Part shown: positions 14,201 through 53,025 of the stretch, piece after piece | How the letters are laid out: each line of letters opens with the position of its first letter | Position numbering within the stretch: position 1 is the first letter of the stretch | Notes under the pieces: generated by a model | Databases searched by the model: none | Seen by the model: only the letters and a program-made list of their open reading frames with translations | Told to the model about the DNA's origin: nothing | Position numbers and translations under genes: made by a program | NCBI GenBank assembly: GCA_023248155.1 | Contig: JAHFFE010000007.1 | Coordinates: 4,401-68,400 of the forward strand | From: Candidatus Omnitrophota bacterium | GTDB taxonomy: Bacteria > Omnitrophota > Gorgyraeia > 1-14-0-20-64-10 | Length of the DNA stretch: 64,000 nt | Direction of reading: 5' to 3'

Positions 14201-14382
14201 GGCTGTTGGAACAGTATCCGGCTGTTACGTCCGATGCAATTCAGGATTTCGGAATAACGAAACCGGTTTCTCAAACCGTGGTACAGATTTTTGAAATTCT
14301 GTTTGGCATCACGCCGGATGCCGCGCTTCAGTTCCAATTAGAACAGTTAGTTGCCCAGGCCACGCTGGCCTTCCAGGCATAA
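5227..14382 (+). CDS. Giant exported protein 2 (3051 aa) with an embedded GlmS-like module (class II glutamine amidotransferase + 2 SIS domains)
   Basis: An uninterrupted 9.2 kb ORF with a GGAGAGAGA SD. The N-terminus is TM/signal plus AWALRPG..GLEE. Internal matches to E. coli GlmS by eye: [23 protein letters not shown] (MCGIVG..LRRLEYRGYDSAGLAV), [29 protein letters not shown] ([29 protein letters not shown]), [11 protein letters not shown] (ETDTEVIAHL), SIS motifs [14 protein letters not shown] and [11 protein letters not shown] (VASTKAFTTQL), and C-terminal [10 protein letters not shown], identical to the GlmS C-terminus. Confidence 0.85.
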   Translation: [3051 protein letters not shown]

Positions 14383-14386
14383 AAAA

Positions 14387-23200: not shown

Positions 23201-26200
23201 GCGCAATTGACCAATTATCCAGGCAGCACGCCGAGCTTTATCTTGCGGAGCAGGCCAAATCAAATGGTATTAACCCTCCAAATTGGTACAGAAATCATAC
23301 CTCGTTGGCACAAACGACGGCTCGCCGCGAAGCGATTGCCGCGCATAACCTGCAAGGGTTGTTGATGGATCCGCGCTACGCCTATTCCAACGGTGCGTTG
23401 AAAGAAACCAGCGAAGGCCGGCTTCGTCCGACCGGTGCGCGTAAACGGTACCATCTGATTTACGGTCCCAGCCGCGTGAACTTGGGCGCAGGCGAGCGCG
23501 ATTCGGTTGAGGTTTGGCCGCAGTGGGTAGGCGTTACCGATCCGTTGGCGGCCGCACATGCGCTGGCGTTTTATCAGTTGATCAACTTCAATCCTGAAGT
23601 CCGCACGATTATGGAAGCGGAGAACCTGAAAGTTTCTGAGAATCAGTGGACCGCAATGGTGCGCGCGGTGCGCAATGCTGAAGCCTATTTCGTTGGACGG
23701 CTGGGTGTAGGCGATATTGAAGATCTGGCGCATCAATTCAACCGGCGTAATGGTCTGCCCGGCGCCTGGCTGAAAGACGGAGAATCGTACGCGGCCGGAC
23801 CGACCACCGGCTACTGCATTCCAAAAGACCTCTTATTCAAAATGTTCGTTGCGACGGCACTCGATGGCCGCAAGATGACGCAGATCGGTGTTCCGAGACA
23901 TCTGCAAGCCGGTGTCTTTAAAATGATGTCGGAAATTTTAGCGGCTCAAGCTAATTTCGACACGGTCACCGACTGGGAAGCCTGGGCTGCGCAAACAATG
24001 CTTTCCGAAAGTTCTCTTCGAGAACGGTTCGGCGCAGCGGATGGCGGGAAATTAAACCAGCTATTCAGCCAATATGTTTCTGTTACCGGCGGCGTGACGG
24101 CTTTCCATCTGACGAAAATGCTTCAGATTCTTCAGATGGTTGGCGTTCCCAGCCCGACATTAGTCCCAGGCAAAAATCTGCACGACGCGCTTTGGGCGCA
24201 ATGGGCCGACTTGAAGTTGACGCTGGCTGCCGAGCAGGTGAACCGCTCTTTGATTTTCCCGATGACGCGCGAGATTCCCGATGGTGTTGCCGAAGCCCGC
24301 CGCTTGAACCCGGGCGTGAATATTGCTGCTCCGGAACAAGCCTCAATTCATATGTTTGGCACCTACAAAGGCGATGATGTCGAGGCTCCGCCGCCCGATG
24401 TCCGGTTCTCCTGGACGATGCGTGCATTTATGATTTTATCCGGCTATGGAAAAGAAGTAGCGCTTTCCCTGGATGAAGACGGACAACTTTTGGCGCGGTT
24501 AAGCTGGGATGGTTTTCTTCCAGATTCCACGGATGAGGAAGATATTAAAGTGGCTCGGTTTGTGGCGCAGAAATTTGCAGGTAAAGATCAATTCGGGGCT
24601 GAAGATTTCGCGTTAGTTGAAAAATTAAAACAAGATTTTCCGCATCATACGACGGTTGGCAACATCACGATTACGGTGGTTCCGGGCGTTTCGGCCGAAG
24701 ACTTGCTCGGTTTTAACGCCGAGACAAAATTATTGTTGGGCGATCGCGCCGCCGCAGTGCGCGAACTGCTTATCTCGAAGGGTATTAACACCGGCCAGAT
24801 TACCGCGAATGCTGTGTTGCGCCATGAATTTCCGGCAGAATGGATTCCGTTGCTTGATCTTGACGCCAAAGAACAAACTGCTTTGAAAGAGGCGGTTGCC
24901 GGCGGAATTCATCCGTTGGTATTGCAGCAGCGCGGACCGGGTACCGATTTCGAGCAAGATTTGCAGGCGCAGGATGTTGCCGTTTTCTCGGTCACGCATC
25001 CGGGAATTGTAACGATGGATCCGTCTAAATTGCGCGACTTGATGCAATTGGGCCGCCCGAATGGGTTACAGAGTGCGTTGGTGGCGCATGATATGGTGGC
25101 GCAGGGCCGGCACCGCGTCTGGTTTGACCGCGATGTGATGCTTTGGTACGCGGCTGCGCGCGGCATTGATGCTGAAGGTAATCCGATTCAAAATTGGTCT
25201 GACCGTGATCAGCAAGGCCGCAAGGCTGTTTATAAAGCGTTCGGTTATGGTGAAGATACCTACCGGCCGCTTCTGGGTACCGATCTGCGGCAGGAAACAG
25301 CCCGGCAGGAACGCCGCGCCGCCGAATTGTTTGAATTGGTCCGGAGGGTCGCCGATTCTGATTTAACCACGCAAGTCACTGCCATCACAGCTTTGCAACA
25401 GCAACTTGATGAACTACGGACGCAACTGCGTACCGAAGCCGAGCTGGCGATCAAATACGAGCAGGCAATGCTTTCATTCCGCCGCAACAAACCGCGTGAT
25501 CAGATCATCCGCGGCTCGCTGGTGGCGCTGGCGTCCGGAAAACCGGTTGAACAATTTGATTTCGTGGATTGGCTTGCAGTCGGCGGCATTTATCTGCTGA
25601 ACGGCGCGCCGCAAGCCCGGCAGGATGAGGTTCGTTCTGTTTTTGACCGGGCCGGCCAAAAGATGGCTTCCGGCTTGGAAGAAAATCCGAATGTCGCGTT
25701 GTTAATCCGTCCGCGCCTGGAGCCGACTTCATTGAGCCGTGCAGAAAGAAAAGGGGAAATGTTCTCCGTCAAAGCGACTGAAACTTTCGCCGAAAAAGCG
25801 GTTGCCCGCCGCAAGGGTTTGGCGCTGCAAGCCGCGCGCCAGTCAGCGCTGCAGGCACGCGAAGAAGGTTTTCGTTCGATTGAGCCGGTTAATTCCGTGG
25901 ATGGAATTCTGCCTGCACTCAATGAAGCGCGCGCTGCCCTCAATGGAATGACTGAGCAGGTAGCGAATCGATCCGGGAATGCGGCGCAGATTCACCGCCA
26001 GAGCGGGCAGGTGATGGGAACTGCGGTAGCGGTACTGAATCGTTTGAATCAGGAATTAACACCGGGACCAGACAGGGAAGAAGTCGCCAAGAAAATTCAG
26101 GCGCTTTCCAAGGGCCGCGAACTGGATGAGAAAGCATGGAGTTCGTTTGGCGGCACCTATGAAGACGCGGGCGTACTGGCCCGGTTTTTTGAGCAGGCCG

Positions 26201-29200
26201 GCCCGAATCGCCGTGAATTGGTGGCGGCCGCGATGGAACTTTTGTATCTGACGATGCTGATCGATAAAACGGCCGAATTTGCCGCATTGCCATCCGACGA
26301 TGTCGATGCTCGCCAACTTTGGCGCGCGCTGTCCGTTTATTACGCCGAAACGCTTGACGACCATTTTTATGAATATAATCCCTGGGCGTTTGACCCGAAG
26401 CGCGGTTCAGCGTTTGTCGATTATTATGATGATGTTGGCGTCCTTAAACCGGAACATCGTGAAGAGCTGTACGGTCTTTCGTGGGCGCATCATCGCGCCG
26501 CTTATTCCTATATCCGCGCGCTGGTTCGCGCAAAAACCGATTACGGCAAACTTCCAAAAGAGGAGTATAACGCGTTGCTCGGCGATGTAACGCTCGGCGC
26601 GACTCCCGATCAAGATCAATTAGCCGTTCAGGCAATCGGCGCCGGAGCGCCCGGTCCCAATGAGTTGTTTTGGCGCGCCTATGGCCAGTACCGTGAAATT
26701 GCTGTGATGCAGAATGACGGGTTCGGGGTGCCTGTGGTGTTTGACCAGTTTGATCCCAATACTCCGGAAGTGATCGACGCGCAGCACCGGCTGAACTTCG
26801 CGTTTGTTTCGCCGGTAGGGCGGACCCATTATTCGCGCGCGCTGATGTCGGCCGCGCAGATGGGATCGAACATTTTTATTACGCGTAACGCCGTCGTGAC
26901 CGAAGTTGCCGGTTCCAATGGAAAAGTCGCCACGATCTCCGACGCGCAGTTTTGGTTGACCGAAGCGCAGTACCGCGAAGCACTGATTCGTTTCCGCGGC
27001 ATGGCCCCCAGCGATGCCGATGCGCAGATCGCGCAAGACCGTGCAGCCGGGCGGATTACGCCGCTCGGGATTCGCGTAGCGGCCCGCTTTACGCAACCGG
27101 TGGTTATTTCGGCCGGAGTGTATCTGCACCATCATTCGATTGAGCCGGAATGGATTGCCGCCGGTTATCCGGCCACCGACAAATCGCCGGTGGTTTATGA
27201 AATCAGTTACGACAAGGCGCTCTATCCGAAAATTTACAATCCGGCCGCTGATACAGGCGTTAACCTTCCGCCTGAGATCGATTGGATGCAGACCGATACC
27301 GACGATAGACCCGAAACTGATGTAAAGCAAGATATCGCCAAAATGCTAAGGCCGTTTGCCGAAACGCATGGCATTATCGTTGCCAAAGGTTCTTCTGAGT
27401 CGGGCGCGCGCAACTTCCGGCGGTTCGATTTCTTCAATGACAACGGTTTTAACGAACAGGTTCTTTCGGAAGCGGTCGATTTTATTTATGAAGTGTCGAA
27501 GGGTCAGAATGTCACGATCCAGCGCGCTATCATCGTTACGCCGATCGCCTGGATGGACCCCTCGGGCGTGAACGATTTTGTCAGCCGCCAGATCCGCGAT
27601 CATGGCGTGCCGGCGAATATTCACCGCTATCCGAAAGACTGGGTTTACAGCACGCAGAGAATTATTATGTCGGCCGGTATGCCGAAAAATCTGAATGATC
27701 TTGATAATCCTGCCAACTGGGAAGCGTCGCATCCGATCAGCTTAAGTAGTTTGCAGGTGGCGACCAATGTAGGGCGGCAGGGAACGCTGGAACTGCTTTC
27801 TCCCGATTTAATCCGTCCGGAATTTCGCGATCAGTTTATCCAGGGATTGCAGGATGCGGGGCGCCGTTCAATGGCAGCGATGGCCAAATATGCCCGGCAA
27901 TATTGGCATGAAGTTTATTTGCCGGCTTATCGCGCCGCGCATGATGGAGCCGATCCGCCCGAATTCGATGCGACCGGTGTTCCCTATTGGTGGCCGCGGT
28001 ATCTAATGCTCGATTTTCTGGCCGAGCCGGTTTTTTACCGTAATGGAGTGGAAGCGGTCGGCGCCCGTGTGGTTGATGTGATTCCCGGTGACGCCGCGCG
28101 CAATGTTTCGGCCCGTTTCGTTTTGCAGGATGCCGACGGCAACCGGTTCGATGGCGAAATCCGCGGGTTTAAATATTGGCTGCTGGAACCGAATGTCGGC
28201 ATCGGATTGTGGCCGAATCTTTGGAAGCGGGAAGAACTTCACGAAAGAGCGCGCGCCAAAGCGGATGGCAATCGTCCGATGGATTGGAACCAGGTTGGCG
28301 TCAGCGACCGGGTTGTGCTTGGCAATTATTTGGCGGCCGGCGAAGCGTTTATGAAAGCAAAATTCGGTGGTGATCATTATGGTCCGGGCGGCCCGCGCCG
28401 CGATCCTCCGCCGATGGGTCCTACTTCTGCGGACATATCGCCGCCAGCAACGGCAGTCACTTTCGTGCAACCGCTTGTTACGGATGTTACTTCTCTACAG
28501 CGTGTCGAAGAATTGAAGTTGGATCAAGATTTAAGCCACCCGCTTGCTCCGGTGATCGAAATTCAGCAGGAACCGGCGTCCGCTGAGCAGTTGAGGGCGT
28601 TATTACCGCATGCGCAGACATTCGCTGTCGTTACCGGTAAGCGGACGCTGATGAACCACCATGTCTATCCGTTTGAGGTAGGTAAGGGAACTGCGGCGGT
28701 TAATGTGATTGGTGTGAACGACGAATGGTTGACTGCGGATGGAAAAGCCACTCGGCTGATGGTCTACAATCCGGAGACCGGGCGTTATCTGGAGTTTCCT
28801 CTTGAGCAGCCGGTCGCCATTAACTCTGCGTTCATTGTTGAGTTGCCGCAGAGCCGCGAAGTAGAACGTCATCAGGAGTTAACGCAGCTGCTTGCTTCCA
28901 ATGGCGTGCGTGTTGTTAACCAGGCCGGTGAAGCACAGCGGCATATGGATGATAAAGCCTGGTTACGGCATGAGAGGATTCCTGAGGTGTTGGTTCCCAC
29001 CGCGATGGTTGTGGAGAAAAGCTCCTCTACTGGGGAGGCCACACTAGGGATCATCGCACGGGGAAGTCCTGCCGGAATCATCATTCAGCCTCGGTCTGGA
29101 ACGACCGAAGGTGAAGGAGTCGCATGGTTTTCCGCCGCGGATACCGATGGACAGTTGGCGCATTTGCGGAATTTATTGAAGACCGGCGATGCGATGGTCT

Positions 29201-31983
29201 CTGCTTTCCGCGGTAATGTAACGGTGGGTGGCCGGCCGCTGGTACTGCGTTTCAACTCTATTTCAGATCAGGTGATCTCCGCGTCGGCAGTGGTGGGTCA
29301 GCCTGATTCCCGAGTCGCTTCTCTTGGGCAAGGCGGTGAAAATATTCCGCTGGCTGAAGCGCTTACTCAATTAACAGGACCAGATAACGCATCCGTTGCA
29401 ATCACTGCCGCTGATTGGCAGCAAATTCAGCAATCGGCGCAGAATGTTGCCGATGTGCTCAGAACACCGGTGGCCGGCATCGATATGGTACTTGAAACAA
29501 CACCGGATGGTCATATTCGCGGTGTTTTGATTGAAGCCAATGCCCGTCCCGGCACACTGATCTTGGGCGAGACGGTCCAGTTCCCAGCATCGGATGCCGT
29601 TGAGGATGCATCCATTGAAAGCAGTCCGGCCGCCCCGGTCGGCCCGGCATTTTGGACTGCTCTCGGAATTTCCCAAACAACCACGCGACCAACGCCCTCT
29701 TCAATCACTACTTTGTCACAATGGATCGATCTGTTGCGGAGTGGTCGAACCGATTGGATGACACCGCACTATACGGGAGATTTTGAAGCCCATCGGGTGA
29801 TTTTGGATGAATGGATCAGCCAAGCGCTGAAACGGGAAGTCCCGGGAACATCCGGCACTCCGTTGTTTGATCCGAATCGTCCGATCGCTATAACGCGAAC
29901 TCCCGGCCGGTTTCTGTTTCCGGTGACAGGCCGGCATCTGGATTATTTGGGCGGACAGGGCGGATCGATCGGATCACCTACCCAACAGGAAACGGTGCTC
30001 ATTGCGCAGGAAGTGGAAGGGTTAAATGGACAGATTGAAATTTATCAGATAGTTGCCCCTGATCCGTCTGTTGCCGAAGTCTATCCCAATAATGGATTGG
30101 GCGCCAGAACGATTGATCTAAATAGCCCCTTTGTAAATCCAGACCGGCCGATTCGGACGCTGGCCGATTGGGATACCTGGGCCAAAACGGTGACTGATCA
30201 GAGAAGAGTCGCCCGCGCCCCGGATACCAAAGTTAATTACGCGGACGATTTGGCCGCGGCAATCATCGCGTTTGCCCGCACCGAGCTCGGAGATCCTTCA
30301 GGTAAAATCCGCGCTTATCTGGACCGGATTGCCAGTGAAGGTAAGGGTTTTCGGTTTGCGCTGGCCAGCAACCTACCGACTGGCGGCGGATTGAGTTCCT
30401 CGTCGGCGGTGGCGATTGGATTCGCGCAGACATTGGCCCAGCTGGCTGGCGTTCAGTTGACACATGATCAACTGGTTAATTTTGGTTATGCCGAACGATT
30501 TTACGCCGGTACGCAGGGTGGCTTAAAAGACCACGCCCATCTTACCGGCGATACGGGATATCTTGGGGTTGCTCCTACGCGCACCATCGCGACGATGAGT
30601 CCAATTCCAGGCGCGTCGGTGTTGTTGCTCGATTCCGGCGTTTCGCGCGATAGAGCAATAGCCCTTTCTCCCAAACTAGGCAGCAAGGGCAATGACGAAC
30701 AGAATATTAAAGGTCGTACGGCTACTGGCTATGCATTGGTCAATCTCTTGCTGAGGCATATTCATCCTGAGTTAACAGCCCGGATTGCACCCGATACGCA
30801 AAATCCGGATGGTTATCTTCGCAATCTGGTTCCCGGTAATCCGGGTGGAATGTCGGTACAGGAAGTTTACAAATTGCTGGGCGAAATTCCGGCAGAAGGA
30901 CTCACCCGTAAACAAATGTATGAATTAATGCCGGAATTTAAGTCTGATCTTGATCGTTTATTTGCCAAGGGTGAGGAGCCGCCTGAGCCGTACGCGCTGC
31001 GTGAAATGGCATTGTTTTTCTTTGCCGAAGAATCGCGCAACTGGGAAGTGGTTCGCGTGCTTAACGCTTTGAAAGCGGATGAGATTAATTCGGATCAGGC
31101 GTTTGAACGGTTGATTGAAGTCGGACGCGCCGCGCACAATGGCGACCGCGTCACCCGTTATGAAATTACGCCAGGTGATCAGGGTTCTTTGAATGTCAAC
31201 GCGATCGGTTGGGATTGGCATCTTTCCGATCCGACGCTCGATCAGTATATCGCGAACTCTGATTCCAACGAAGCCGCGCTTTGGCGCCAGGCCGGCCGGC
31301 TGGAACGATCGATTGAACCGCTCGACCGGCTGGTGGATCTGGTTGAATATTATAACCAGCAGCATGGTGGAAATTCCGATGTTGCTGTCGTGATGGGCGC
31401 CGGTTTGGGTGGGACCGTCGGCGTTTTGGCCCGTTCTGATTCTGTCGATGGATTAACGCAATTTCTGAACGAGCATTATTACCAGCCGTTAGGCTTGACC
31501 CATGGACCGGTTATCCGCGCGCAAGCGGGTAAGGGTGCCAGTGTATTGGTTTCCCCAACGGCCGGTCTTGAGGAATCGGCTACCAAGGTTGCTGTTCCTT
31601 CGGCTAGCCGGACAGTGTTCAATGGTCTTGGCGTGGTGGCCGGACCGACCACCACCGGATTGCAGTGGGGGTTGGCCATTGCGCGCAATGGTAAACAGCG
31701 CGACGGCCGGCCGGTGCCGGTAGTTTTTCTGGTCAATAACGATGAGCAGCGCGCGCAGTTGACGAAGGCCGGTTTCGGCGATTTTATTTTCACAAATGAA
31801 TCGGAAGCCATCGCGGCGATTACCGGTTATGGCGTTAAACCGGTTCTGGTTGGTGTGGGTCAATCGGTGCCTGAATCGGTATTCGTCTTGTTTGCCGAGT
31901 TATTCGGCATCGAACTTTCTAATGTGCAGGCCGATTTTTGGCAGGGCGCTTATGCTTCCGCGGCGGTCGATGTCAACGCGTAA
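20230..31983 (+). CDS. Giant exported protein 4 (3917 aa) with a UDP-glucose/GDP-mannose dehydrogenase-like catalytic motif and a C-terminal GHMP-kinase-like domain
   Basis: It starts 5 nt after the preceding stop. The N-terminus has the TM plus SYALRVQQPVGGEAASGLEE. GPTTGYCIPKDLLFKMF matches the UDPGDH catalytic-Cys motif GGSCxPKD. GFRFALASNLPTGGGLSSSSAVAIG matches the GHMP kinase PxGSGLGSSAA motif. Confidence 0.85.
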   Translation: MNLNPKKIISGLIVGTFFFSQVTPSYALRVQQPVGGEAASGLEERLISRPSQGFATRVGAVRGAVQTARRSVGAKQASVAWNLKDGQLSPIAWASGPALPNATTVVPAVLSRAEQGLKWLYGKRSSVAVVENSLRNDLLGDSVSVELRANHGMTLDFDRGDNAVRLDTTIAEELFDSTDIDQNGLSVLYGIGFFYQLQLVAGRSPREAAHLTLALYQNISDTERAALLSVLRSPQIDHGNQWARFFEEGSKPADYRGIDSLELETRLETETNTDTRTALEAVVNHRDKLVSWLLGQQLIDLPYDRTKMLEAMTAFETNVDAGRSLAFEAVKGFDRKVEQANADRVGTMIREEWLPDNMPYPTLLAGRYSRAFGNQGGLAANAVYVEANPGIRDLAQLLETEAKAEQLLAELKALESSVPARALPKFRKAEQRIEALLVQLGPGIARIRLLVSGQAAALTQYKGALQQIRENITIFYREAARVIESARDTANAAGGKGILRRLTQNVSKPFQAAQEKVSEFAAQSGRLATITNDLETAALQAPSQPAAFSVLLQRPSPTGSINFNANELVEKPEQEPALRELARLGGQNSYTSPSYDWVSEATDIIEAAPLFIYERTVVLEDGKSVTVFEVDQEGLEQTVRQMADYWALNIDKTIDSEHLALAREIVVAADPVLSGRAGQLTGQGISVEAAHRQVIYEASEKRPELLRLVGTTAAWLAAEFDRRITEVEKHTEAEWQKDHFIDRMESLRDVVVTGRSPSELLSLAQDAIGSHTAEVDRLTPLALRRRRPMPAFHLLTTQAPGLVQGFFQAVLEEEMALRNVAKAKGLDDEVRDRVKRYQQRIAELGRTVIQEFGYQPILEQKKSELPASMADDEKERQAIQRTIADHMPLQQELAKLAVLVEFAEAEGKPMDPSHPDPSQVEEIISGQTVELTAEAVRAVWQRNQLDPELANKVIALDSTQTDEAAIAQAIHQTPIYEEELQSNIRWLARQRAIDQLSRQHAELYLAEQAKSNGINPPNWYRNHTSLAQTTARREAIAAHNLQGLLMDPRYAYSNGALKETSEGRLRPTGARKRYHLIYGPSRVNLGAGERDSVEVWPQWVGVTDPLAAAHALAFYQLINFNPEVRTIMEAENLKVSENQWTAMVRAVRNAEAYFVGRLGVGDIEDLAHQFNRRNGLPGAWLKDGESYAAGPTTGYCIPKDLLFKMFVATALDGRKMTQIGVPRHLQAGVFKMMSEILAAQANFDTVTDWEAWAAQTMLSESSLRERFGAADGGKLNQLFSQYVSVTGGVTAFHLTKMLQILQMVGVPSPTLVPGKNLHDALWAQWADLKLTLAAEQVNRSLIFPMTREIPDGVAEARRLNPGVNIAAPEQASIHMFGTYKGDDVEAPPPDVRFSWTMRAFMILSGYGKEVALSLDEDGQLLARLSWDGFLPDSTDEEDIKVARFVAQKFAGKDQFGAEDFALVEKLKQDFPHHTTVGNITITVVPGVSAEDLLGFNAETKLLLGDRAAAVRELLISKGINTGQITANAVLRHEFPAEWIPLLDLDAKEQTALKEAVAGGIHPLVLQQRGPGTDFEQDLQAQDVAVFSVTHPGIVTMDPSKLRDLMQLGRPNGLQSALVAHDMVAQGRHRVWFDRDVMLWYAAARGIDAEGNPIQNWSDRDQQGRKAVYKAFGYGEDTYRPLLGTDLRQETARQERRAAELFELVRRVADSDLTTQVTAITALQQQLDELRTQLRTEAELAIKYEQAMLSFRRNKPRDQIIRGSLVALASGKPVEQFDFVDWLAVGGIYLLNGAPQARQDEVRSVFDRAGQKMASGLEENPNVALLIRPRLEPTSLSRAERKGEMFSVKATETFAEKAVARRKGLALQAARQSALQAREEGFRSIEPVNSVDGILPALNEARAALNGMTEQVANRSGNAAQIHRQSGQVMGTAVAVLNRLNQELTPGPDREEVAKKIQALSKGRELDEKAWSSFGGTYEDAGVLARFFEQAGPNRRELVAAAMELLYLTMLIDKTAEFAALPSDDVDARQLWRALSVYYAETLDDHFYEYNPWAFDPKRGSAFVDYYDDVGVLKPEHREELYGLSWAHHRAAYSYIRALVRAKTDYGKLPKEEYNALLGDVTLGATPDQDQLAVQAIGAGAPGPNELFWRAYGQYREIAVMQNDGFGVPVVFDQFDPNTPEVIDAQHRLNFAFVSPVGRTHYSRALMSAAQMGSNIFITRNAVVTEVAGSNGKVATISDAQFWLTEAQYREALIRFRGMAPSDADAQIAQDRAAGRITPLGIRVAARFTQPVVISAGVYLHHHSIEPEWIAAGYPATDKSPVVYEISYDKALYPKIYNPAADTGVNLPPEIDWMQTDTDDRPETDVKQDIAKMLRPFAETHGIIVAKGSSESGARNFRRFDFFNDNGFNEQVLSEAVDFIYEVSKGQNVTIQRAIIVTPIAWMDPSGVNDFVSRQIRDHGVPANIHRYPKDWVYSTQRIIMSAGMPKNLNDLDNPANWEASHPISLSSLQVATNVGRQGTLELLSPDLIRPEFRDQFIQGLQDAGRRSMAAMAKYARQYWHEVYLPAYRAAHDGADPPEFDATGVPYWWPRYLMLDFLAEPVFYRNGVEAVGARVVDVIPGDAARNVSARFVLQDADGNRFDGEIRGFKYWLLEPNVGIGLWPNLWKREELHERARAKADGNRPMDWNQVGVSDRVVLGNYLAAGEAFMKAKFGGDHYGPGGPRRDPPPMGPTSADISPPATAVTFVQPLVTDVTSLQRVEELKLDQDLSHPLAPVIEIQQEPASAEQLRALLPHAQTFAVVTGKRTLMNHHVYPFEVGKGTAAVNVIGVNDEWLTADGKATRLMVYNPETGRYLEFPLEQPVAINSAFIVELPQSREVERHQELTQLLASNGVRVVNQAGEAQRHMDDKAWLRHERIPEVLVPTAMVVEKSSSTGEATLGIIARGSPAGIIIQPRSGTTEGEGVAWFSAADTDGQLAHLRNLLKTGDAMVSAFRGNVTVGGRPLVLRFNSISDQVISASAVVGQPDSRVASLGQGGENIPLAEALTQLTGPDNASVAITAADWQQIQQSAQNVADVLRTPVAGIDMVLETTPDGHIRGVLIEANARPGTLILGETVQFPASDAVEDASIESSPAAPVGPAFWTALGISQTTTRPTPSSITTLSQWIDLLRSGRTDWMTPHYTGDFEAHRVILDEWISQALKREVPGTSGTPLFDPNRPIAITRTPGRFLFPVTGRHLDYLGGQGGSIGSPTQQETVLIAQEVEGLNGQIEIYQIVAPDPSVAEVYPNNGLGARTIDLNSPFVNPDRPIRTLADWDTWAKTVTDQRRVARAPDTKVNYADDLAAAIIAFARTELGDPSGKIRAYLDRIASEGKGFRFALASNLPTGGGLSSSSAVAIGFAQTLAQLAGVQLTHDQLVNFGYAERFYAGTQGGLKDHAHLTGDTGYLGVAPTRTIATMSPIPGASVLLLDSGVSRDRAIALSPKLGSKGNDEQNIKGRTATGYALVNLLLRHIHPELTARIAPDTQNPDGYLRNLVPGNPGGMSVQEVYKLLGEIPAEGLTRKQMYELMPEFKSDLDRLFAKGEEPPEPYALREMALFFFAEESRNWEVVRVLNALKADEINSDQAFERLIEVGRAAHNGDRVTRYEITPGDQGSLNVNAIGWDWHLSDPTLDQYIANSDSNEAALWRQAGRLERSIEPLDRLVDLVEYYNQQHGGNSDVAVVMGAGLGGTVGVLARSDSVDGLTQFLNEHYYQPLGLTHGPVIRAQAGKGASVLVSPTAGLEESATKVAVPSASRTVFNGLGVVAGPTTTGLQWGLAIARNGKQRDGRPVPVVFLVNNDEQRAQLTKAGFGDFIFTNESEAIAAITGYGVKPVLVGVGQSVPESVFVLFAELFGIELSNVQADFWQGAYASAAVDVNA

Positions 31984-34900
31984 TACACTTTTCCAAAAGA
32001 TCTCAGGCGCCGTTCTTATCGGCGCCTTTCTTTTTGTGAACGCGGCGCCGGGTTATGCACTGCGCGCCACTCAGCCGGTAGTGGGCTCCGGTGCCGAAGA
32101 GCTTAGACAAAAACTTTCCGTCAATAATTCCGTTCCTGCTTTTGCCGGACAGGAGGAAACGCCGCCATCGCCGATTATGGGCCATCGTTTGGTGGAGACC
32201 GGAATTCCGGGTTACCGCCGCGTTGTTTATTTTCTGCAGGACGGTTCTTCGTGGAATGGCGGTGTTGTCCGTTCTGATGTCCCTGAAAATGCGATTGCTT
32301 CGACCGCTTATCTAGCCCCGTACAGTTTTGCGGAAGGGGCAGCGGCGCGATTGGAAGATGGCGCGCAGGTGGCAGACGGATCGGCCGTTATTAATTCGGC
32401 GATTCGTTCCGGCGCGAAGTTGAATGGTTCCGTCGCGGAAAATGCGCTGGTTCATCCGGCGGCCTGGGTTTCGTATTCAGCGCTGGGTCCGGCGTTTGAT
32501 GACGACAGCTGGAGTTATTCGCTAGCGACCGAAAGAGACTCCGAGCTTTCAGTTCGCAATCATTTGGCTTTTTTTGCGCGTAATACTTACCGCGTGGAAG
32601 TCGGTTACAACAGTTCGGTGCGCGGATCGGTTTTTCAAGACAGCGCTGTCGGCCCGGACAGTGATATTTTTGGGAGCGCGTTGGTAATCAGCCGCTGGGG
32701 TGAACAGACCCGCATGGACGGCGGCGTAAAATCGTGGCTGGCGGTCGGCGCGCAGGGCCATGCCGATATTGCCGGCGTTCAGCATCGTCCTGACGGGACC
32801 GAGATTCCGGCCGCGCTGGAAATCGCCGAGGCCGCTTATCAGGGATTGCCGGCCGAACAATATCCCGGCACTCAAATTCACGAGCACCATGTCGGTTATA
32901 CAGAGGCGGTTATTACCAACAGCGTACCGTTAGTCGGTTATACCGCCGGGGAATTAACTGTTACACCTTATCTGGTTCCTCCCATAACCTTATTCGGCGA
33001 TTACACAATTTTCTCGATCTTCGCCGGTTCTCCGAATCCACAGGGAATTAAAACTGACGGCAGGCCGACGCCCGGTGTTATTACGCGCTTGACCGGCGGT
33101 CCCGGCGAACAGAGCAGTCAGCATGGCCGGATTATTTCCGACCCGCTTTCAATTCTCCCCGGATTTTCAAATGTGATCGGCCGTCTGCTGGGATTCCCGG
33201 AACTGGATAATCCATTGGCACTGCTGACCGAACCGGAAGTGACGCATCTGGGCCCTCTCTCGGCTGTCGGCGCCGATGCGCAGCTCGGTTTAAATGGTCT
33301 GGAAGGATGGGGGCAGATATTACCGGCCGAAGCGCGCGGCCAGTTAAGCCGCGGTTCCGGCATTGCGCCCTGGGTATTTTTGTATTCTCCCGAGGTTCTT
33401 TTTTCTTTGATGGGTCAGCTGGCTTCCGGTTTACCTGCGAATGATCAGTCCCGGTACGATGATTTGCCGCAGCGGTTACTGGAATCAGGACTGGCCTTAA
33501 GCCGATGGATGCTCGATCAGGAACAGGCAAAAGACGCGCAAGCCAACGCGCAGGTGATTGAACGGCTTGAGCGGTACATCGCTGGTTTTTCGGCATTGAT
33601 TGAGAGCGAGGCCTGGGCCGGAAAATGGGTGCAGGATGGGGAACTGCGTCACCCGGAACAGTGGCAACGCTATGGCGATCGGTGGGAAACCAGTTCTCTA
33701 AATCTTGCAAACATGCATCGTCAGATTCATCCATTTGCCGATTCGGTTCCGTATACGCAAGTTCCTCTTCGTTACTTGTTGGCGGTTCCCGATGGTGTCG
33801 ATCGTCCCGATTGGAGCCAGTGGACCGGCTACTATCTGAAACCCGAAGACCTTCAGACCAGTCCGCCCACACCGCTCGATCAATTAGAGCAGGTGGATGA
33901 ATCGTTAAAAGAATGGAGAATTATCGGACAGGACGCAAAATTTTATTACACGGTCGAGGGCGGCCGGATCGGCCGTGAAGTCGATTTAAAGATGATTCAT
34001 CCTTCTGCGCTGATTGGTCCCGGCACGGTGTTAATCGGAGCGGCCACTTCGGTGGGCGAAGGGACCCGCCTGCTTCGCGTCATTGCCGATAATACGGTAA
34101 TCGGCAGCGAAACCCATCTGACCGCCGTTTATTCCAGAAGCACTGTTTTTGGAAACGGGATTAAACTGACTTGGGCGAAAACGACCCGCCTGGTGAGGAT
34201 TGGAGATGGCACCGTCGGTTCCTATGTCGGCATCTCGGAAGGGAGTGTCGTTGGAAAAAATAATACCTTTGAGCCATTTGCGCTGGTGATTAATTCCACC
34301 ACGGGACCTAATAACGTGATCGGCATTTCGTTGGTGAACAGCCAGGTTCAGCCTGGTTTCATGGGACGGCATCTTTCGACGGCGGTGCATAACCTTCAGC
34401 AGCAATCGGTTCGTTTTCAAGTCAACGGAAAAAACTATGATTTGAAGGCCGCTTCCCTCAATGTGGCTGGTGGGTTGTTCGTTCAGGGCAATGATAAGAC
34501 CCCGGTTCGTTTGAGTTCGGCTTATCCGCTTTCGCTGACAACGATTGATCCGGGGAATGGACAGAAGTTCGCAGTCGGCGCTTTCAGCGTTCTTAAAAAT
34601 CAAATTCGTCTCGACGACGGGCAAATCCTGCCACTGACATTTCATGCGTTCAATCATGTGGCATCCACTGATCCGCTATTTGCCCAGCCGGGCCGGCACA
34701 ACGACTCCATCGGCGGCGCGCTGGAATTCCCGGGAATTTTTCTGCGCAATTTTATCTATCGGACGAAGAAAGGAATTTATGACGATCTGGCCGCGCAGGG
34801 ATTAACGCGCGAGCAGATTCTTGTCCATCCGCGGATGCTGCAGTCCGATTATATGATTGAGGCGACCATTGTCAGCGCGCTGGTGCAGGTAATCAATCAA

Positions 34901-35734
34901 CTGCGCGAGATCGATATGGATGCGTATGATCATTTGGTTGGAACCGGTAATGCGGCGCTGGGCCGGCTGTTAAAATTGGCGGAAGGTGATCTGTCGCAAA
35001 TTGAGCAGGGCGATCAATCTGCGCTAGGTGTTCGAACTCCCCAGCTGCAGGTACAAATTAAAATGGCTATTAGGCAGGTTCAGCAGGCATTGGATTCTTT
35101 GCCGGGAAGCCGTCCTTCCGCCGGCACCGTTTCTTCGTCGGGGCATACGGCCGCGCAGTTATTGGAAGGGGTTGCGCGGTTGTCGCAAAATCTCGATGGC
35201 CGCTGGCGGATGCGCAACCACACGTTTACTGAAGTCGAATGGCGTTACCAGGCGTACGATGCGTCCCGCCGCGCGCGCGATACCTGGGTTCCTGTCTCGA
35301 AACCCGATTCATTGCCGATTCCGCTGCCGGCCGGAGCATTGTCCGAAGGGAAATATCTTTTTATCGCCCCGAGCGTGGCTGTTCCCGAACTTTGGGCTGG
35401 TTTGGGCCGGCTGAAGCCGTCTTCCGGAGAAACAATCGGTCTGGTTATTTTTGGCCGAGATGCCGGTCATCTGGAAACTATTCGGGCAGAGATGATGGGG
35501 TATTCATTTGCGTCATCGGCGAAATTCATCGATCTATCTCAGTACAGCGACGATTTGATGCGGGCGGTTGCGGGTCAGGTGGCTGTGCTGGGCAGTAATG
35601 ATGCATTTGAATACCGGCTGATCCGAACATTCAGCGATCTCGGTGTTATTGGGAAGTTCCTCCAAATTCCGGATATTTCGTTCCGTGCCTGGGAGCGGCA
35701 AATTCAGAACGCCGGGTTCGAAGAATATGTATAA
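31970..35734 (+). CDS. Giant exported protein 5 (1254 aa from ATG 31970) with a left-handed beta-helix (hexapeptide acyltransferase-like) region
   Basis: The ATG overlaps the last 14 nt of gene 4. The N-terminus is MSTRNTLFQKISGAVLIGAFLFVNAAPGYALRATQPVVGSGAEELRQ. An LbH-like run IGPGTVLIGAATSVGEGTRLLRVIADNTVIGSETHLTAV...IGDGTVGSYVGISEGSVVGKNN is present. The upstream in-frame ATGs at 31796 and 31952 would add a non-hydrophobic extension, so 31970 is preferred. Confidence 0.8.
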   Translation: MSTRNTLFQKISGAVLIGAFLFVNAAPGYALRATQPVVGSGAEELRQKLSVNNSVPAFAGQEETPPSPIMGHRLVETGIPGYRRVVYFLQDGSSWNGGVVRSDVPENAIASTAYLAPYSFAEGAAARLEDGAQVADGSAVINSAIRSGAKLNGSVAENALVHPAAWVSYSALGPAFDDDSWSYSLATERDSELSVRNHLAFFARNTYRVEVGYNSSVRGSVFQDSAVGPDSDIFGSALVISRWGEQTRMDGGVKSWLAVGAQGHADIAGVQHRPDGTEIPAALEIAEAAYQGLPAEQYPGTQIHEHHVGYTEAVITNSVPLVGYTAGELTVTPYLVPPITLFGDYTIFSIFAGSPNPQGIKTDGRPTPGVITRLTGGPGEQSSQHGRIISDPLSILPGFSNVIGRLLGFPELDNPLALLTEPEVTHLGPLSAVGADAQLGLNGLEGWGQILPAEARGQLSRGSGIAPWVFLYSPEVLFSLMGQLASGLPANDQSRYDDLPQRLLESGLALSRWMLDQEQAKDAQANAQVIERLERYIAGFSALIESEAWAGKWVQDGELRHPEQWQRYGDRWETSSLNLANMHRQIHPFADSVPYTQVPLRYLLAVPDGVDRPDWSQWTGYYLKPEDLQTSPPTPLDQLEQVDESLKEWRIIGQDAKFYYTVEGGRIGREVDLKMIHPSALIGPGTVLIGAATSVGEGTRLLRVIADNTVIGSETHLTAVYSRSTVFGNGIKLTWAKTTRLVRIGDGTVGSYVGISEGSVVGKNNTFEPFALVINSTTGPNNVIGISLVNSQVQPGFMGRHLSTAVHNLQQQSVRFQVNGKNYDLKAASLNVAGGLFVQGNDKTPVRLSSAYPLSLTTIDPGNGQKFAVGAFSVLKNQIRLDDGQILPLTFHAFNHVASTDPLFAQPGRHNDSIGGALEFPGIFLRNFIYRTKKGIYDDLAAQGLTREQILVHPRMLQSDYMIEATIVSALVQVINQLREIDMDAYDHLVGTGNAALGRLLKLAEGDLSQIEQGDQSALGVRTPQLQVQIKMAIRQVQQALDSLPGSRPSAGTVSSSGHTAAQLLEGVARLSQNLDGRWRMRNHTFTEVEWRYQAYDASRRARDTWVPVSKPDSLPIPLPAGALSEGKYLFIAPSVAVPELWAGLGRLKPSSGETIGLVIFGRDAGHLETIRAEMMGYSFASSAKFIDLSQYSDDLMRAVAGQVAVLGSNDAFEYRLIRTFSDLGVIGKFLQIPDISFRAWERQIQNAGFEEYV

Positions 35735-35830: not shown

Positions 35831-37744
35831 ATGAATATCCCAAGCGATAAATCGCCCCGTTTCGTTTTCCGGTTTTTTTCAGCTTTGTTTATGGTGGCCC
35901 TGGTTTTCGTAATGCCTGCAACCCTCTTTGCCGATCCAACGCCGGTTCCCGAATCTTCCGCTGAAGCGGCCAAACCGCCTACGGCCCAGAATAACAAGGA
36001 TTATGTGCCGGGCGAGGTATTGGTCCGTATCAAGGATGGTGTTCCGGTCTCGCAGGTGGCGGCACTCGCCAAATCGATGGGCGCGAACCTCGACCGCCGC
36101 GTTACTTCGTGGGGACTCTATCTTTTTAAGTTCAGTGATTCCGCTCCAATTGATGAAGTTGTCAATCGTCTTCGCCAGCACCCGGCGGTTCAATATGCCG
36201 AGCCCAACGGAAAAATGCAGTTGTTCGGCGTCGGCGACGGCAGCGGATCCGGTTCGGAAAATTCTTCGGCAGGAACCCCGATTCTGGTGGCCGTGATTGA
36301 TACCGGCATTGATTTGAATCATACGGCGTTCGCCGGACATCTGTATCAGAACCTGCGCGAGATCGCCGGCGACGGCATTGATAACGACGGCAACGGTTAT
36401 GTCGACGACGTCAATGGATTTGATTTTTACAGCCGTTCCTCCTCCCCGATGGGAACGGCTGGTTCCGGCGCGCACGGTACGCAGGTGACCGGGCGCATTT
36501 TGCAGGGTGCCGTCGACGCGCCGGTTTCGGTGATGGCGCTGAGGGTCGGCCCCGGGCCGTCGCTTTCGTTGGCGGCCATCGTTGAAGCGATCGATTACGC
36601 CGTCAACAACGGCGCGAAAGTTATCAATATGAGCCTCGGCGCAACGATGCCGTATCAGGCGCTTTCCGAAGCGGTTCAGCGCGCGATTGACCGCGGCGTG
36701 ATTGTCGTGGCGGCGGCTGGCAACAGCGGCGCCGTGACGCCGAACTATCCGGCCGCTTTGCCGGGCGTGATATCGGTGGCCGCGTCCGACGCCAATGGCG
36801 CAAAAACCTGGTGGTCAAACTACGGCAGCACTGTCGATTTCACGGCGCCCGGTGATCAGGTAGTCACTACGACTTTCGGCGGAGGAAACGCCGCCGTCAG
36901 CGGAACTTCATTCTCGGCGCCGTTTGTGGCCGGCATGGTCGCGCGTATTCTTTCGGCCATGCCGAACCTCGGCGTAAATGATGTGATTAATAATTTGAAG
37001 GCATTTGCCAAAGATATTTACGCGGTGAACCACAGTTTTTACCAGGGCAAGCTGGGGCAGGGATTCCTCGACGAGCAGGTGGCTTCGCGCATCGCGCAGG
37101 CATTTCCGTTAGCGCCGCGGTCTCCGGCCGATCAGCCGCAGAATCAGAAGGATATGCTCGATGCCCAATTGGCCGCCGCGCAGAGGGAAGTCGCCCGGCT
37201 TGAATCGGAACTTTCCGCCGCAGACCGGAACCTGACCGCCGCGCATGAAGCTACTGTCGCTGCGAATGCACAAGTGGATCAGGCGGTGCAGAATGCCAAC
37301 CAGGCCTGGAAAGATTTCACGAATGCCTGGAGCGCCTGGTTCCGCGCCAGTTACTCGATCCGTGTTTCTCCGCAGGAAAAAGAATCACTGCGCCAGAAAA
37401 TGCAGCAGGCCTGGGAAAAAATGAACAAGGCCAACGCCGAAAAGCAGGATGCCCAGGCCCGCCAGCGCGTGGCGCAGTCGGATGAGAACCGGATCCGGAC
37501 CCAGCGTGAATCAATCGCCACCCAGCTGCGCGGCGCGCGCCAGCAGGTGGACGACATCAACCGGCGCCTTTCGGCGCTGATCAACCCGGCGCAGGGGGGA
37601 CAGGCCGAAACGAACTCGTTGTTGGGCCGTCTGCACGCGATTTCTCAATCGCTTAGTTTCGGGCCGCGCGGTCTGGGAATGCAGGAAGCGTCCGAATTGT
37701 CGCTGCCGGGTTCCGACAACGATCAGAATACAAGCGCTAAATAA
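35831..37744 (+). CDS. Secreted S8 subtilisin-like serine protease with a C-terminal coiled-coil region
   Basis: A GAGGAGA SD precedes the ATG. There is a signal peptide. Catalytic triad motifs: VAVIDTGID (Asp), HGTQVTG (His), GTSFSAPFVAG (Ser). The C-terminal ~180 aa are Q/A/R/E-rich heptad-like sequence. Confidence 0.85.
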   Translation: MNIPSDKSPRFVFRFFSALFMVALVFVMPATLFADPTPVPESSAEAAKPPTAQNNKDYVPGEVLVRIKDGVPVSQVAALAKSMGANLDRRVTSWGLYLFKFSDSAPIDEVVNRLRQHPAVQYAEPNGKMQLFGVGDGSGSGSENSSAGTPILVAVIDTGIDLNHTAFAGHLYQNLREIAGDGIDNDGNGYVDDVNGFDFYSRSSSPMGTAGSGAHGTQVTGRILQGAVDAPVSVMALRVGPGPSLSLAAIVEAIDYAVNNGAKVINMSLGATMPYQALSEAVQRAIDRGVIVVAAAGNSGAVTPNYPAALPGVISVAASDANGAKTWWSNYGSTVDFTAPGDQVVTTTFGGGNAAVSGTSFSAPFVAGMVARILSAMPNLGVNDVINNLKAFAKDIYAVNHSFYQGKLGQGFLDEQVASRIAQAFPLAPRSPADQPQNQKDMLDAQLAAAQREVARLESELSAADRNLTAAHEATVAANAQVDQAVQNANQAWKDFTNAWSAWFRASYSIRVSPQEKESLRQKMQQAWEKMNKANAEKQDAQARQRVAQSDENRIRTQRESIATQLRGARQQVDDINRRLSALINPAQGGQAETNSLLGRLHAISQSLSFGPRGLGMQEASELSLPGSDNDQNTSAK

Positions 37745-42803: not shown

Positions 42804-43669
42804 AACGGAAGGCGGCTTTGCTGCTGCTTGTTCTCTTGCTGGGCGCCGTTTCAACGGCCTGGGCACGCCAGCCGGTTATGGATATGATGCCTCGGTGGAA
42901 GCATGGGTATGGCTTCCAGTTTGCCCATTCCTCCCGTACGTCTTCCACGCTGAAAGAAGGCGATTCTGAAATTAACAATCCTTTTGGCCGGAAACGCCGC
43001 GTGGAAATGGAATGGCTGCAGGGGGTTTATTCGTTCAGTCAGGAGCGCCGCGTTTCTTTCAAGATCCCTTGGGTTAACCAAAGCCGGACCACGCTAAGGC
43101 ATGGTGCCCCAGTAAAAGAAACCGGAACCGGTTGGGGGGACCTGATTCTCGGTTTTCTCTTTAAAAAATATTGGGACAGAGAAAATACCACCGCCAATGT
43201 GAGCGTGGTGCCGTCTATCCGTATTCCGACCGGCAGCACCGACGATGCTTATCCCGTGGGTGACGGCAGCACCGATTTTGGTTTAAGCTTCTCCTACAAC
43301 CGCGATACTCCGCGCACCTATCAGTTTTACGAAACATTTTATTGGCTCAACGGGCATGGCCGGCAGGGGATCTCCCAGGGCGATGAAATCGGCCTCAATG
43401 CCGATCTGGGATTGAACGTCTACCGGAACCAGGAAAAGAATTGGGGCATTATGCTGGCCTGGAGCAATACGCTGCGGCACGAAATGCAGGGAGTGGACCA
43501 GGAGGGAGAAACCGGCGGAACGCTCTTGTCGATGGGGCCGATGGTGATGTTCTCCTGGAGAAATTTTATCAGTCATGTGGGATATAAAATACCGGTCTAC
43601 GAACGGCTTCAGGATCAGCAGGTTTCTTATGGTCCGGAACTGGAGATTGAAGCAGGGATGGCCTTCTGA
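42800..43669 (+). CDS. Outer membrane beta-barrel protein, possibly of the small OM transport family often found in metal operons
   Basis: A signal peptide MKRKAALLLLVLLLGAVSTAWA, alternating beta-strand-like pattern, and a C-terminal ...GMAF with terminal Phe. Confidence 0.45.
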   Translation: MKRKAALLLLVLLLGAVSTAWARQPVMDMMPRWKHGYGFQFAHSSRTSSTLKEGDSEINNPFGRKRRVEMEWLQGVYSFSQERRVSFKIPWVNQSRTTLRHGAPVKETGTGWGDLILGFLFKKYWDRENTTANVSVVPSIRIPTGSTDDAYPVGDGSTDFGLSFSYNRDTPRTYQFYETFYWLNGHGRQGISQGDEIGLNADLGLNVYRNQEKNWGIMLAWSNTLRHEMQGVDQEGETGGTLLSMGPMVMFSWRNFISHVGYKIPVYERLQDQQVSYGPELEIEAGMAF

Positions 43670-45096: not shown

Positions 45097-45109
45097 AAGG
45101 GAATTTACG

Positions 45110-46507: not shown

Positions 46508-46508
46508 A

Positions 46509-46907
46509 ATGCGCAACATAGTAATGGCCGGAATGGCGGCGGCGTTTTTGATGATGTTGGGTTTCTCGAATTTACCGGCGGCTGTGGCGCACGATGCCAA
46601 TATGCCGGGGATGGAGAACGGAAGGGATGTGGCTATTAAAGGGGAACTGGTGGATTCTCTCTGCTATGTGGCGATGGCCGGAAAAGGTTCGGGCCATAAA
46701 CAGTGCGCGATGGATTGCGCGAAAGCCGGAATTCCCGTCAGTATCGTTGAAGAGGGCACCGGTAAGTTGTATACGGTTCTTCCTAAAGAGGACAAGACAG
46801 GGTATCCTGCCAGCGTTATCAGCAAAATGGGCCAACAAGTAACGTTGAAGGGTGATCTTTACGAGACCGGCGGCAATAAGTATGTGACCGTCGAATCGGT
46901 GGAATAA
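46509..46907 (+). CDS. Periplasmic Cys/His/Met-containing protein, putative metal-binding
   Basis: A signal peptide, the motif CYVAMAGKGSGHKQCAMDCAKAG, and location inside the copper operon. Confidence 0.4.
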   Translation: MRNIVMAGMAAAFLMMLGFSNLPAAVAHDANMPGMENGRDVAIKGELVDSLCYVAMAGKGSGHKQCAMDCAKAGIPVSIVEEGTGKLYTVLPKEDKTGYPASVISKMGQQVTLKGDLYETGGNKYVTVESVE

Positions 46908-46912
46908 AGCCG

Positions 46913-49494: not shown

Positions 49495-49497
49495 CCT

Positions 49498-51896: not shown

Positions 51897-51904
51897 ACCA
51901 ATTT

Positions 51905-53023: not shown

Positions 53024-53025
53024 CC

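Follow-up and report, generated by a model that had tools for sequence, protein, structure and literature searches.

A galactokinase-like GHMP kinase module in a giant protein, predicted to be exported, of an Omnitrophota bacterium

The window analyzed here is a stretch of 64,000 nucleotides (nt) from a Candidatus Omnitrophota bacterium (contig JAHFFE010000007.1, positions 4,401 to 68,400), and the element in question is a GHMP sugar-kinase module encoded near the 3' end of g3, one of four consecutive giant open reading frames (ORFs). All features described below are on the plus strand unless otherwise stated. The four giants are g1 (5227-14382, 3051 amino acids (aa)), g2 (14351-20224, 1957 aa, directly before g3), g3 (20230..31983, 3917 codons) and g4 (31952..35734, about 1255 aa). 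In the mechanical ORF call, g4 begins at 31796 and shares its first 188 nt with the end of g3; the real start is probably 31952 or 31970, as set by leader homology to g3 and the database gene model, and the database protein P0033 corresponds to g4 from residue 53 onward. The 3917-aa protein of g3 is identical to an NCBI record (P0075) on an 85-kb NCBI contig, and a shortened copy (P0032) is present in an independent ENA assembly. Collinear orthologues of g3 were found in at least three other assemblies, the source organism of which has a GC content of 60%; the collinear orthologue P0039 (4734 aa) is 56% identical to g3. Because of these database copies and collinear orthologues, the giant ORFs are regarded as real genes and not as an assembly artefact.

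The kinase module (29707..31560; g3 residues 3160-3777, 618 aa) is the last enzymatic module of g3 and ends about 140 residues short of the stop codon. An earlier note on this DNA had recognized in it a textbook GHMP motif 2, quoting the peptide FALASNLPTGGGLSSSSAVAIGFAQTLAQLAG. This exact peptide occupies g3 residues 3376-3407 (30355..30450), and the Pfam GHMP_kinases_N match around it (PF00288, residues 3367-3436) has an E value of 5.2e-11 and, at 43 bits, clears the gathering score of 22.3, so the motif is not a chance resemblance. The end given for it, 30450, was accurate, while the start, 30330, lies 25 nt before the first residue of the peptide. It had also been placed near the C-terminus of a fourth giant: the peptide does lie 510 residues from the end of its protein, but the host is the third of the four giants, and becomes the fourth only if a 592-aa ORF at 3419 is counted.

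The three GHMP motifs and the catalytic Asp were found in the module, in the expected order. These are motif 1, PGRFLFPVTGRHLDYLGGQGG (29902..29964), with Arg 3227, His 3236 and Asp 3238 identified from alignment A1; the motif 2 phosphate-binding loop PTGGGLSSSSA (30361-30399, residues 3384-3394); the predicted catalytic Asp 3434 in GGLKDH (30529..30531); and motif 3, GAGLGGTVGV (31396..31425). Motif 3 is accompanied by a weak Pfam GHMP_kinases_C match (PF08544, residues 3699-3751), which at 14.4 bits stays below the cut-off of 21. In alignment A1, which comprises 24 sequences including canonical galactokinases, the invariant positions are GLSSS, Glu263, D275 (g3 Asp3434) and the motif-3 glycines G566 and G569; the Arg of PGR and the His in motif 1, and G564, A565 and G568 in motif 3, are conserved in at least 90% of the sequences. 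Column D275 lines up with the Asp of G-x-x-D-Q in canonical galactokinases. The galactokinase motif-1 signature P-G-R-V-N-L-I-G-E-H-x-D-Y corresponds to PGRFLFPVTGRHLDY in g3, with Arg, His and Asp retained. Among the NCBIfam models, the best matches were galactokinases, followed by mevalonate and homoserine kinases, all far below their equivalog cut-offs; by these curated models the module is GalK-like yet lies outside the galactokinase equivalogs.

The AlphaFold2 model of the module, built on alignment A1, had a mean predicted local distance difference test score (pLDDT) of 83.9 and a predicted template-modelling score of 0.86. When this model was compared with the PDB by Foldseek, 165 matches were obtained at E<=0.001, and the top 50 were all N-acetylgalactosamine (GalNAc) kinase, galactokinase or Gal3p, with a probability of 1.0 and target-normalised template-modelling scores of 0.58-0.80. 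The best were human GalNAc kinase (2a2c), yeast Gal1p/Gal3p and human GALK1 (E from 6e-14 to 1e-12), and the structural match spans the C-terminal lobe too. Gal3p itself is a paralogue of galactokinase that is not catalytic because two residues are deleted at the phosphate loop. For a sequence profile of the module and its homologues, human GalNAc kinase 2a2c was the best match in the PDB (E=1.6e-79) and GALK1 the next (about 1e-75). The GHMP fold that the earlier note had proposed, to be checked by hidden Markov model profiles and structure prediction, is therefore supported by sequence, profile and structure alike, and the contrary outcome it had envisaged, profiles without GHMP support, did not occur. 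The suggested type of enzyme, a sugar-1-kinase, also agrees with the profile ranking and with the frequent fusion of the homologues to GlmU-like nucleotidyltransferases. We consider it very likely that the fold of the module is truly that of a GHMP sugar kinase and that its active site is intact, and the intact motifs and catalytic residues suggest an active kinase. The kinase is a divergent member of a well-known superfamily, and taken alone it represents ordinary biochemistry. A scan of the GTDB species representatives with the module gave no match, which indicates that these include neither the source genome nor a close relative, and a literature search on 'AbGHMP' (PDB 9ulx) returned nothing relevant.

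The closest relative found, P0001, is a stand-alone protein of 601 aa on a 4.3-kb contig, 31% identical to g3 residues 3160-3786 at 95% coverage (E=1.9e-55). Since this stand-alone protein aligns with the module end to end, the module corresponds to one complete enzyme. Further relatives are stand-alone proteins of 498-547 aa and fusions of an NTP-transferase and a kinase (795-911 aa), the N-terminal halves of which match GlmU. The motifs are kept in the orthologue P0039, in P0036 and in a eukaryotic homologue on contig L084. The module shares with the GALK2/GALK1/Gal1p branch the two-lobed GHMP fold, the three motifs and the catalytic Arg/Asp pair. However, it is about 230 residues longer than a canonical galactokinase of 380-390 aa, carries an N-terminal helical extension and three insertions common to the uncharacterised proteins P0001-P0016, has GRHLDY with a two-residue insertion in motif 1 where galactokinases have GEHxDY, and, unlike galactokinases and GalNAc kinase, sits in a protein of 3917 aa. 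Its own subfamily consists of the stand-alone proteins (P0001-P0004) and the GlmU-like plus GHMP fusions (such as P0006 from a metagenome-assembled genome (MAG) of Clostridia and P0016 from one of Kiritimatiellae), and the module has the SHNGDRV insertion and a helical insert in common with these relatives. These fusions pair an anomeric kinase with a nucleotidyltransferase, the same logic as that of g3 and g2, but have both activities on one ordinary-sized, leaderless cytoplasmic protein; the pyrophosphorylase of g2, in contrast, is of the eukaryotic UAP1/AGX (UDPGP) type and lies on a separate giant.

Three further marks of g3 are a leader, a tetrapeptide motif and a C-terminal domain. The protein begins with a predicted Sec signal peptide, MNLNPKKIISGLIVGTFFFSQVTPSYA followed by LR (20230..20310), which as read from the sequence has a positive n-region, a hydrophobic core of 12 residues, and Pro at -4, Ser at -3 and Ala at -1. 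No internal hydrophobic segment was found in g3 besides this leader. The leaders of g1 to g4 all consist of a positive stretch, a hydrophobic core of 12-15 residues and P-[SAG]-[YW]-A followed by L-R, and this design with canonical -3/-1 residues recurs in most family members. The word 'secreted', used for these giants before, thus agrees with the Sec-type signal sequence predicted on all four. The second mark is the tetrapeptide GLEE, present in g3 just past the leader (20350..20361, residues 41-44), at 25672..25683 (residues 1815-1818) and, within TAGLEES, at the boundary between the kinase and the C-terminal domain (31564..31575, residues 3779-3782). Other sites are located at about 5353 and 13621 in g1 and at about 19964 in g2. 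In 68,884 residues of the family (P0034-P0075), 89 copies of GLEE were counted where the composition would predict 2.6, a roughly 34-fold enrichment; nearly all of them follow A, T, S or G, and they lie in linkers that are rich in Pro/Ala and otherwise unconserved. One site lies 10-15 residues past the predicted signal cleavage and one shortly before or inside the C-terminal domain, with others between modules. P0039 has an extra N-terminal module flanked by two GLEE sites, and the second of these aligns with the first site of g3.

The placement between modules can be followed in a related cluster on contig L086, where the orthologue of g4 has gained GHMP, PGM/PMM (PGM_PMM) and ROK modules. 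Its GLEE sites, within L086 24240-34205, are at residues 1798, 2614, 2903 and 3234. The GHMP match (1362-1758) ends about 40 residues short of the first, the ROK match (2909-3245) begins 6 residues beyond the third, and the last is at the junction of the ROK match and the g4 tail; the PGM/PMM modules presumably lie between residues 1798 and 2903. L086 thus encodes two GHMP-like modules, one in the g3 orthologue P0039 (20267-24202, 26-27% identity, motifs intact) and one in the g4 orthologue (28323-29513). Because the latter carries a second GHMP module beside PGM/PMM and ROK, enzyme modules are shuffled between the giants. GLEE could be a linker, processing, docking or recombination signature; no description of the motif was found in a literature search.

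The third mark is a Rossmann-like alpha/beta domain of about 120 aa at the C-terminus (31624..31980 in g3; 14014-14379 in g1; 19850-20221 in g2; about 35350-35731 in g4). It matched no Pfam family and gave no informative structural match. An exhaustive profile search of 1.84 billion proteins recovered 43 cluster representatives, mostly proteins of 1-4.9 thousand amino acids (kaa), and in 41 of them the domain reaches the C-terminus or ends no more than about 10 residues before it; P0056 and P0070, the remaining two, have a short internal match only and look spurious. With g3 carrying all three, the leader, [ATSG]GLEE and the C-terminal domain define a rare, previously undescribed family of giant proteins. 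Export is predicted for the whole set because all four giants have the Sec-type leader, the [ATSG]GLEE linkers and the shared C-terminal domain.

Possible partner enzymes of the kinase were found in the neighboring giants. The earlier note had pointed to a UDPGP domain in the same set, and this is supported for g2, where residues of about 1354-1538 (18410..18964) match UDP-N-acetylhexosamine (UDP-HexNAc) pyrophosphorylases of the UAP1/AGX type in the PDB. In phmmer comparisons the E values range from 2.6e-6 for mouse UAP1 (1vm8) through about 3e-5 for human AGX1/AGX2 to 1e-4, whereas the Pfam scan of g2 gave no UDPGP match. The module holds a nucleotidyltransferase-like G-x-G-S-R-L loop, AAAGEGSRL. 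It starts about 60 residues past a ROK sugar-kinase module (17309..18223), detected by Pfam above the cut-off with E=5.9e-8 to 9.5e-11. In g1, GlmS-like parts extend over 7408..11109, with GATase_6 at 7408-7725 (E=1.2e-5, 25.7 bits, slightly under the 27-bit cut-off) and SIS at 10966-11109 (30.7 bits against a cut-off of 25). This class-II glutamine amidotransferase stretch and the SIS domain correspond to the two halves of a GlmS-type enzyme. The L086 orthologue of g1 also matches DUF4954 and GMPPB_C. For g4, Pfam gave weak matches only, to a hexapeptide/left-handed beta-helix stretch (about 34025-34288) and to NUDIX.

Three genes precede the giants: a ROK gene (51-734), a GH94 (disaccharide) phosphorylase gene (797-3217) and, directly before g1, g0 (3419-5197), which encodes the 592-aa protein mentioned above, all assigned by Pfam. 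The g0 protein has an N-terminal hydrophobic stretch, a weak match to the ChaN/Tiki superfamily and the motifs HIQDAH and AGGFH, and is a candidate accessory factor or protease. The order ROK-GH94-g0-giant is kept in a groundwater contig, L090. When window positions 51-14382 were compared with L090 4510-21322, ROK was 82%, GH94 79% and g0 (L090 8235-9980) 73% identical, while g1 and its counterpart P0063 were 35% identical over 2257 aligned residues. Directly downstream of g4 lies the gene of an S8 subtilase (35831..37744) with a signal peptide, a prodomain (Fervidolysin) and a coiled-coil tail of about 200 residues (Pfam Peptidase_S8, E=1.3e-40). A metagenome scan with this protein yielded 80 loci, all with generic relatives of at most 39% identity and none with the family C-terminal domain.

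Homologues of g3 were also found in eukaryotes. With g3 residues 1001-1800 as the query, eight clusters were recovered that share about 50% identity over a domain of 370 residues without a Pfam family, and one of them is labelled Brachionus plicatilis, a rotifer (BpHYR1_050310). The homologous contigs have 27-31% GC, and on three of them (L083 6504-19534, L084 2894-14983 and L085 1161-14749) the coding regions are collinear with g3 from residue 171 to 3740 or so, the kinase module included. AT-rich, stop-filled segments of 55-147 nt bounded by GT...AG break up the reading frame on L084 and L085; these are spliceosomal introns, so both contigs are eukaryotic. L083 is counted with them as intron-bearing: its interruptions are 400-870 nt long with 14-25% GC, and one is at the position of an L084 intron. 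An alternative genetic code and decaying endosymbiont genes were considered for the AT-rich contigs and rejected in view of the short GT...AG introns on L084 and L085. The L084 copy, the one whose ends were examined, lacks a signal peptide, GLEE motifs and the C-terminal domain. These intron-containing homologues imply that a gene encoding about 3.7 kaa passed between domains of life, which would be an unusually large transfer of this kind.

These modules suggest a pathway. In the scheme proposed from the sequence, the GHMP module would phosphorylate the anomeric hydroxyl of a hexose or N-acetylhexosamine with ATP, and the resulting sugar-1-phosphate would then be uridylylated by the UAP1/AGX-type module of g2. 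Related intermediates could be supplied by the GlmS-like modules of g1, the ROK module of g2 and the upstream GH94 and ROK proteins, with a phosphohexomutase module present in the related cluster. The steps would then be GlmS, ROK kinase, phosphomutase, GALK2-type anomeric kinase and UAP1/AGX-type pyrophosphorylase, leading to UDP-HexNAc. Such a route of hexosamine synthesis and salvage is established biochemistry, and applied to this cluster it would amount to a supply line for UDP-amino-sugars. The eukaryotic salvage of hexosamine by GALK2 and UAP1/AGX1 converts GalNAc via GalNAc-1-phosphate to UDP-GalNAc; N-acetylhexosamine-1-kinase in the sense of NahK is not a GHMP enzyme, so GALK2 is the relevant GHMP example. 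The likeness to this salvage pair lies in the GALK2-like and UAP1/AGX-like modules side by side in one cluster; the difference is that here they belong to two separate giants of a bacterium, each with a leader, and that their substrate and coupling are putative. Export would involve either the entire multi-enzyme proteins or polyproteins with cuts at the GLEE sites. On balance we think it probable that g3 carries a complete and competent module of the GalK/GalNAc-kinase type, which feeds g2 within a set of beads-on-a-string giants predicted to be exported. Two parts of this are less secure: actual export, as predicted from the leaders, has about an even chance, and coupling to the UAP1-like module with a substrate of the HexNAc type falls a little short of that.

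Several observations weigh against a competent GalK-type kinase in an exported giant. With respect to the enzyme, the best NCBIfam galactokinase model scored 37.7 bits against an equivalog cut-off of 499, PF08544 stayed below threshold, and the galactose-binding Pfam domain GalKase_gal_bdg (PF10509), detected in the homologues P0002, P0003 and P0005-P0023, was undetected in the module. Furthermore, motif 1 (PGRFLFPVTGRHLDYLGG) has a two-residue insertion and an Arg in place of the sugar-binding Glu of GEHxDY; therefore the substrate may be neither galactose nor GalNAc. With respect to the location, ATP and UTP have no known supply in the bacterial periplasm or outside cells, so that catalysis by an exported kinase is difficult to explain: in a normal periplasm, enzymes of the kinase, amidotransferase and pyrophosphorylase types brought there by Sec would find neither ATP nor UTP nor glutamine-derived chemistry. 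The 35% identity of g1 beside neighbors at 73-82% is unusual for housekeeping metabolism. Giants that evolve far faster than their neighbors while keeping their catalytic motifs fit exposed or conflict-related proteins better than housekeeping ones, and this keeps other explanations alive. Finally, the L084 core lacks all export decorations, which suggests that the enzymatic core is normally cytosolic.

This last point leads to the first of the alternatives, in which the giants are cytoplasmic multi-enzyme 'metabolons' that use cytoplasmic ATP, the N-terminal hydrophobic stretch either acting only as a tether on the cytoplasmic side of the membrane or being unused for export. All of the kinase, amidotransferase, pyrophosphorylase and ATP-grasp-like modules require cytoplasmic cofactors, and the L084 homologue is without a leader. 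By the positive-inside rule, a positive n-region before the h-region predicts translocation, not retention, of the C-terminal bulk, and the leader here, with its positive n-region, short h-region and A-x-A-like site, points that way; moreover, the leader and the residues past the predicted cleavage are conserved far better than ordinary anchors. On the other side, an Omnitrophota preprint of 2026 reads most enzyme-rich giants as anchored on the cytoplasmic face (10.64898/2026.06.07.730766), and West-Roberts et al. warn that errors in topology may lie behind the prediction of sugar-enzyme domains as extracellular (10.1101/2023.11.21.568195). We regard a cytoplasmic location as unlikely, though worth keeping in view.

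Similar weight is given to a second alternative, according to which the giants are exported polyproteins or effectors, active where ATP exists, as in a prey or host cell or in a lysate, and cut at [ATSG]GLEE by a protease for which the S8 subtilase and g0 are candidates. It is consistent with the roughly 34-fold enrichment of GLEE in Pro/Ala-rich linkers, at or near module boundaries in L086, and with the two GLEE sites that flank the extra N-terminal module of P0039. The signal-peptide-bearing S8 protease comes next after g4, and g0 is syntenic and 73% conserved; in addition, S8 and C39 peptidase domains are tied to the giants of predatory Omnitrophota (10.1101/2023.11.21.568195). However, the metagenome relatives of the S8 protein are generic and none lies beside a family member, and cleavage at GLEE is hypothetical. 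The giants of the window carry just 1-3 GLEE sites each, so most modules would stay fused. We regard this alternative, too, as unlikely. Just as doubtful is the more elaborate combination in which the giants are Sec-exported polyproteins of sugar-activating enzymes, separated by GLEE for processing or docking and capped at the C-terminus, that run a UDP-amino-sugar pathway outside the cytoplasm, in an enlarged periplasm of the Planctomycetes-Verrucomicrobia-Chlamydiae (PVC) type, at the cell surface or in prey. This would be a modular system not recognized before, and the core of one giant would also have been exchanged with a eukaryotic lineage, most likely rotifers, which still has it as a gene with introns.

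Least likely is that the enzyme-like modules, the GHMP module included, are now non-catalytic sugar- or nucleotide-binding parts, lectin-like or sensor-like, of an exported giant of the surface or adhesin type: the Sec-type leader without transmembrane segments predicts an extracytoplasmic place where ATP is scarce, divergence to 35% beside neighbors at 73-82% is often seen in surface proteins and Gal3p is among the top structural matches, but unlike in Gal3p the phosphate loop GLSSSSA is intact, and the catalytic Asp, the Arg and motif 3 are kept in the window, L086, P0036 and the eukaryotic copies at 24-27% identity, which would be unexpected if sugar binding alone were important.

It has been described that giants of PVC bacteria embed enzymes of sugar metabolism, with an extracellular location doubted by the authors themselves (West-Roberts et al. 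2023, 10.1101/2023.11.21.568195), and two papers describe the 'Archaeovorins' and an Omnitrophota class of 'multi-enzyme metabolic clusters' (10.1101/2023.11.21.568195; 10.64898/2026.06.07.730766). Such giants resemble g1 to g4 in being very long strings of sugar enzymes (PGM/PMM, ROK, isomerases), often with signal peptides, but they have 10-147 kaa and are rich in HEAT/TPR repeats, glycosyltransferases (GT5/GT1) and transmembrane helices. The giants here and the other family members have 1.3-4.9 kaa and no transmembrane segments, and those of the window (1.3-3.9 kaa) gave no HEAT/TPR or GT5/GT1 matches in Pfam, so that they fall outside the Archaeovorins as defined; the likeness is of concept only. 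In the keyword-matched passages of both papers, the GHMP kinase, the P-x-[YW]-A-L-R leader, GLEE and the C-terminal domain are absent. Four differences thus separate the present giants from those of the PVC bacteria: size; the lack of repeats and transmembrane helices; the signature of leader, GLEE and C-terminal domain; and the GHMP and UAP1-type modules. Since enzyme-laden PVC giants have already been reported, the proteins are of a known type, here in a new form. The setting of the kinase, in which ATP- and UTP-dependent sugar-activating enzymes are built into giants with export signals, sharpens the question raised by the PVC giants of whether enzyme domains work outside the cytoplasm and, if so, on which energy supply. 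With 1.3-4.9 kaa, separable modules, the GLEE motif, the leader, the C-terminal domain and two candidate accessory proteases, the family is tractable for testing it, and if the GLEE sites serve processing or docking, they would represent a new way to organise a metabolic pathway.

The rest of g3 is largely without recognizable families. Outside the kinase module, neither the whole protein nor 500-aa pieces of it gave a significant Pfam or NCBIfam match, which leaves about 3100 residues without any family in these scans, and full-length g3 matched GHMP proteins only among the PDB sequences. The module that adjoins the kinase upstream (28477..29706, residues 2750-3159) is weakly ATP-grasp-like (Pfam ATPgrasp_YheCD, E=0.0027-0.03, under the cut-off); it is 43% identical in P0039 and adjoins the kinase in the intron-bearing eukaryotic homologues too. 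A word-indexed protein search returned no homologues of it. This search also missed the window proteins and P0039 although both are in its collection, and family counts taken from it are therefore too low. A highly conserved domain at 23347..24489 (residues 1040-1420), without a Pfam match, is 67% identical to P0039 and 47-53% identical to the homologues on the AT-rich contigs. A stretch in it, AENLKVSEN...TTGYCIPKD, is reminiscent of the region around the catalytic Cys in UDP-glucose/GDP-mannose dehydrogenases, and the sole profile match of the domain in the PDB was UDP-glucose 6-dehydrogenase 3vtf (E=1.5, not significant). The domain is possibly like a nucleotide-sugar dehydrogenase, which we offer as a lead and not as a claim.

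Farther downstream the window contains ordinary chromosomal genes (43669-50364 and 51327-56239), which encode an outer-membrane efflux protein, a multicopper oxidase and a P-type ATPase (both with HMBD), a cation diffusion facilitator (CDF) transporter and then gcvT/PA/PB. GcvPB has a single close match, 75% identical, in a MAG labelled uncultured Planctomycetia; the matches that follow, at 56-57%, come from several phyla, with an Omnitrophota MAG at 57%, so that this protein points to a phylum only tentatively. On the minus strand, 60246-62207 encodes a 653-aa protein with NTP_transf_5 and a sulfotransferase stretch.

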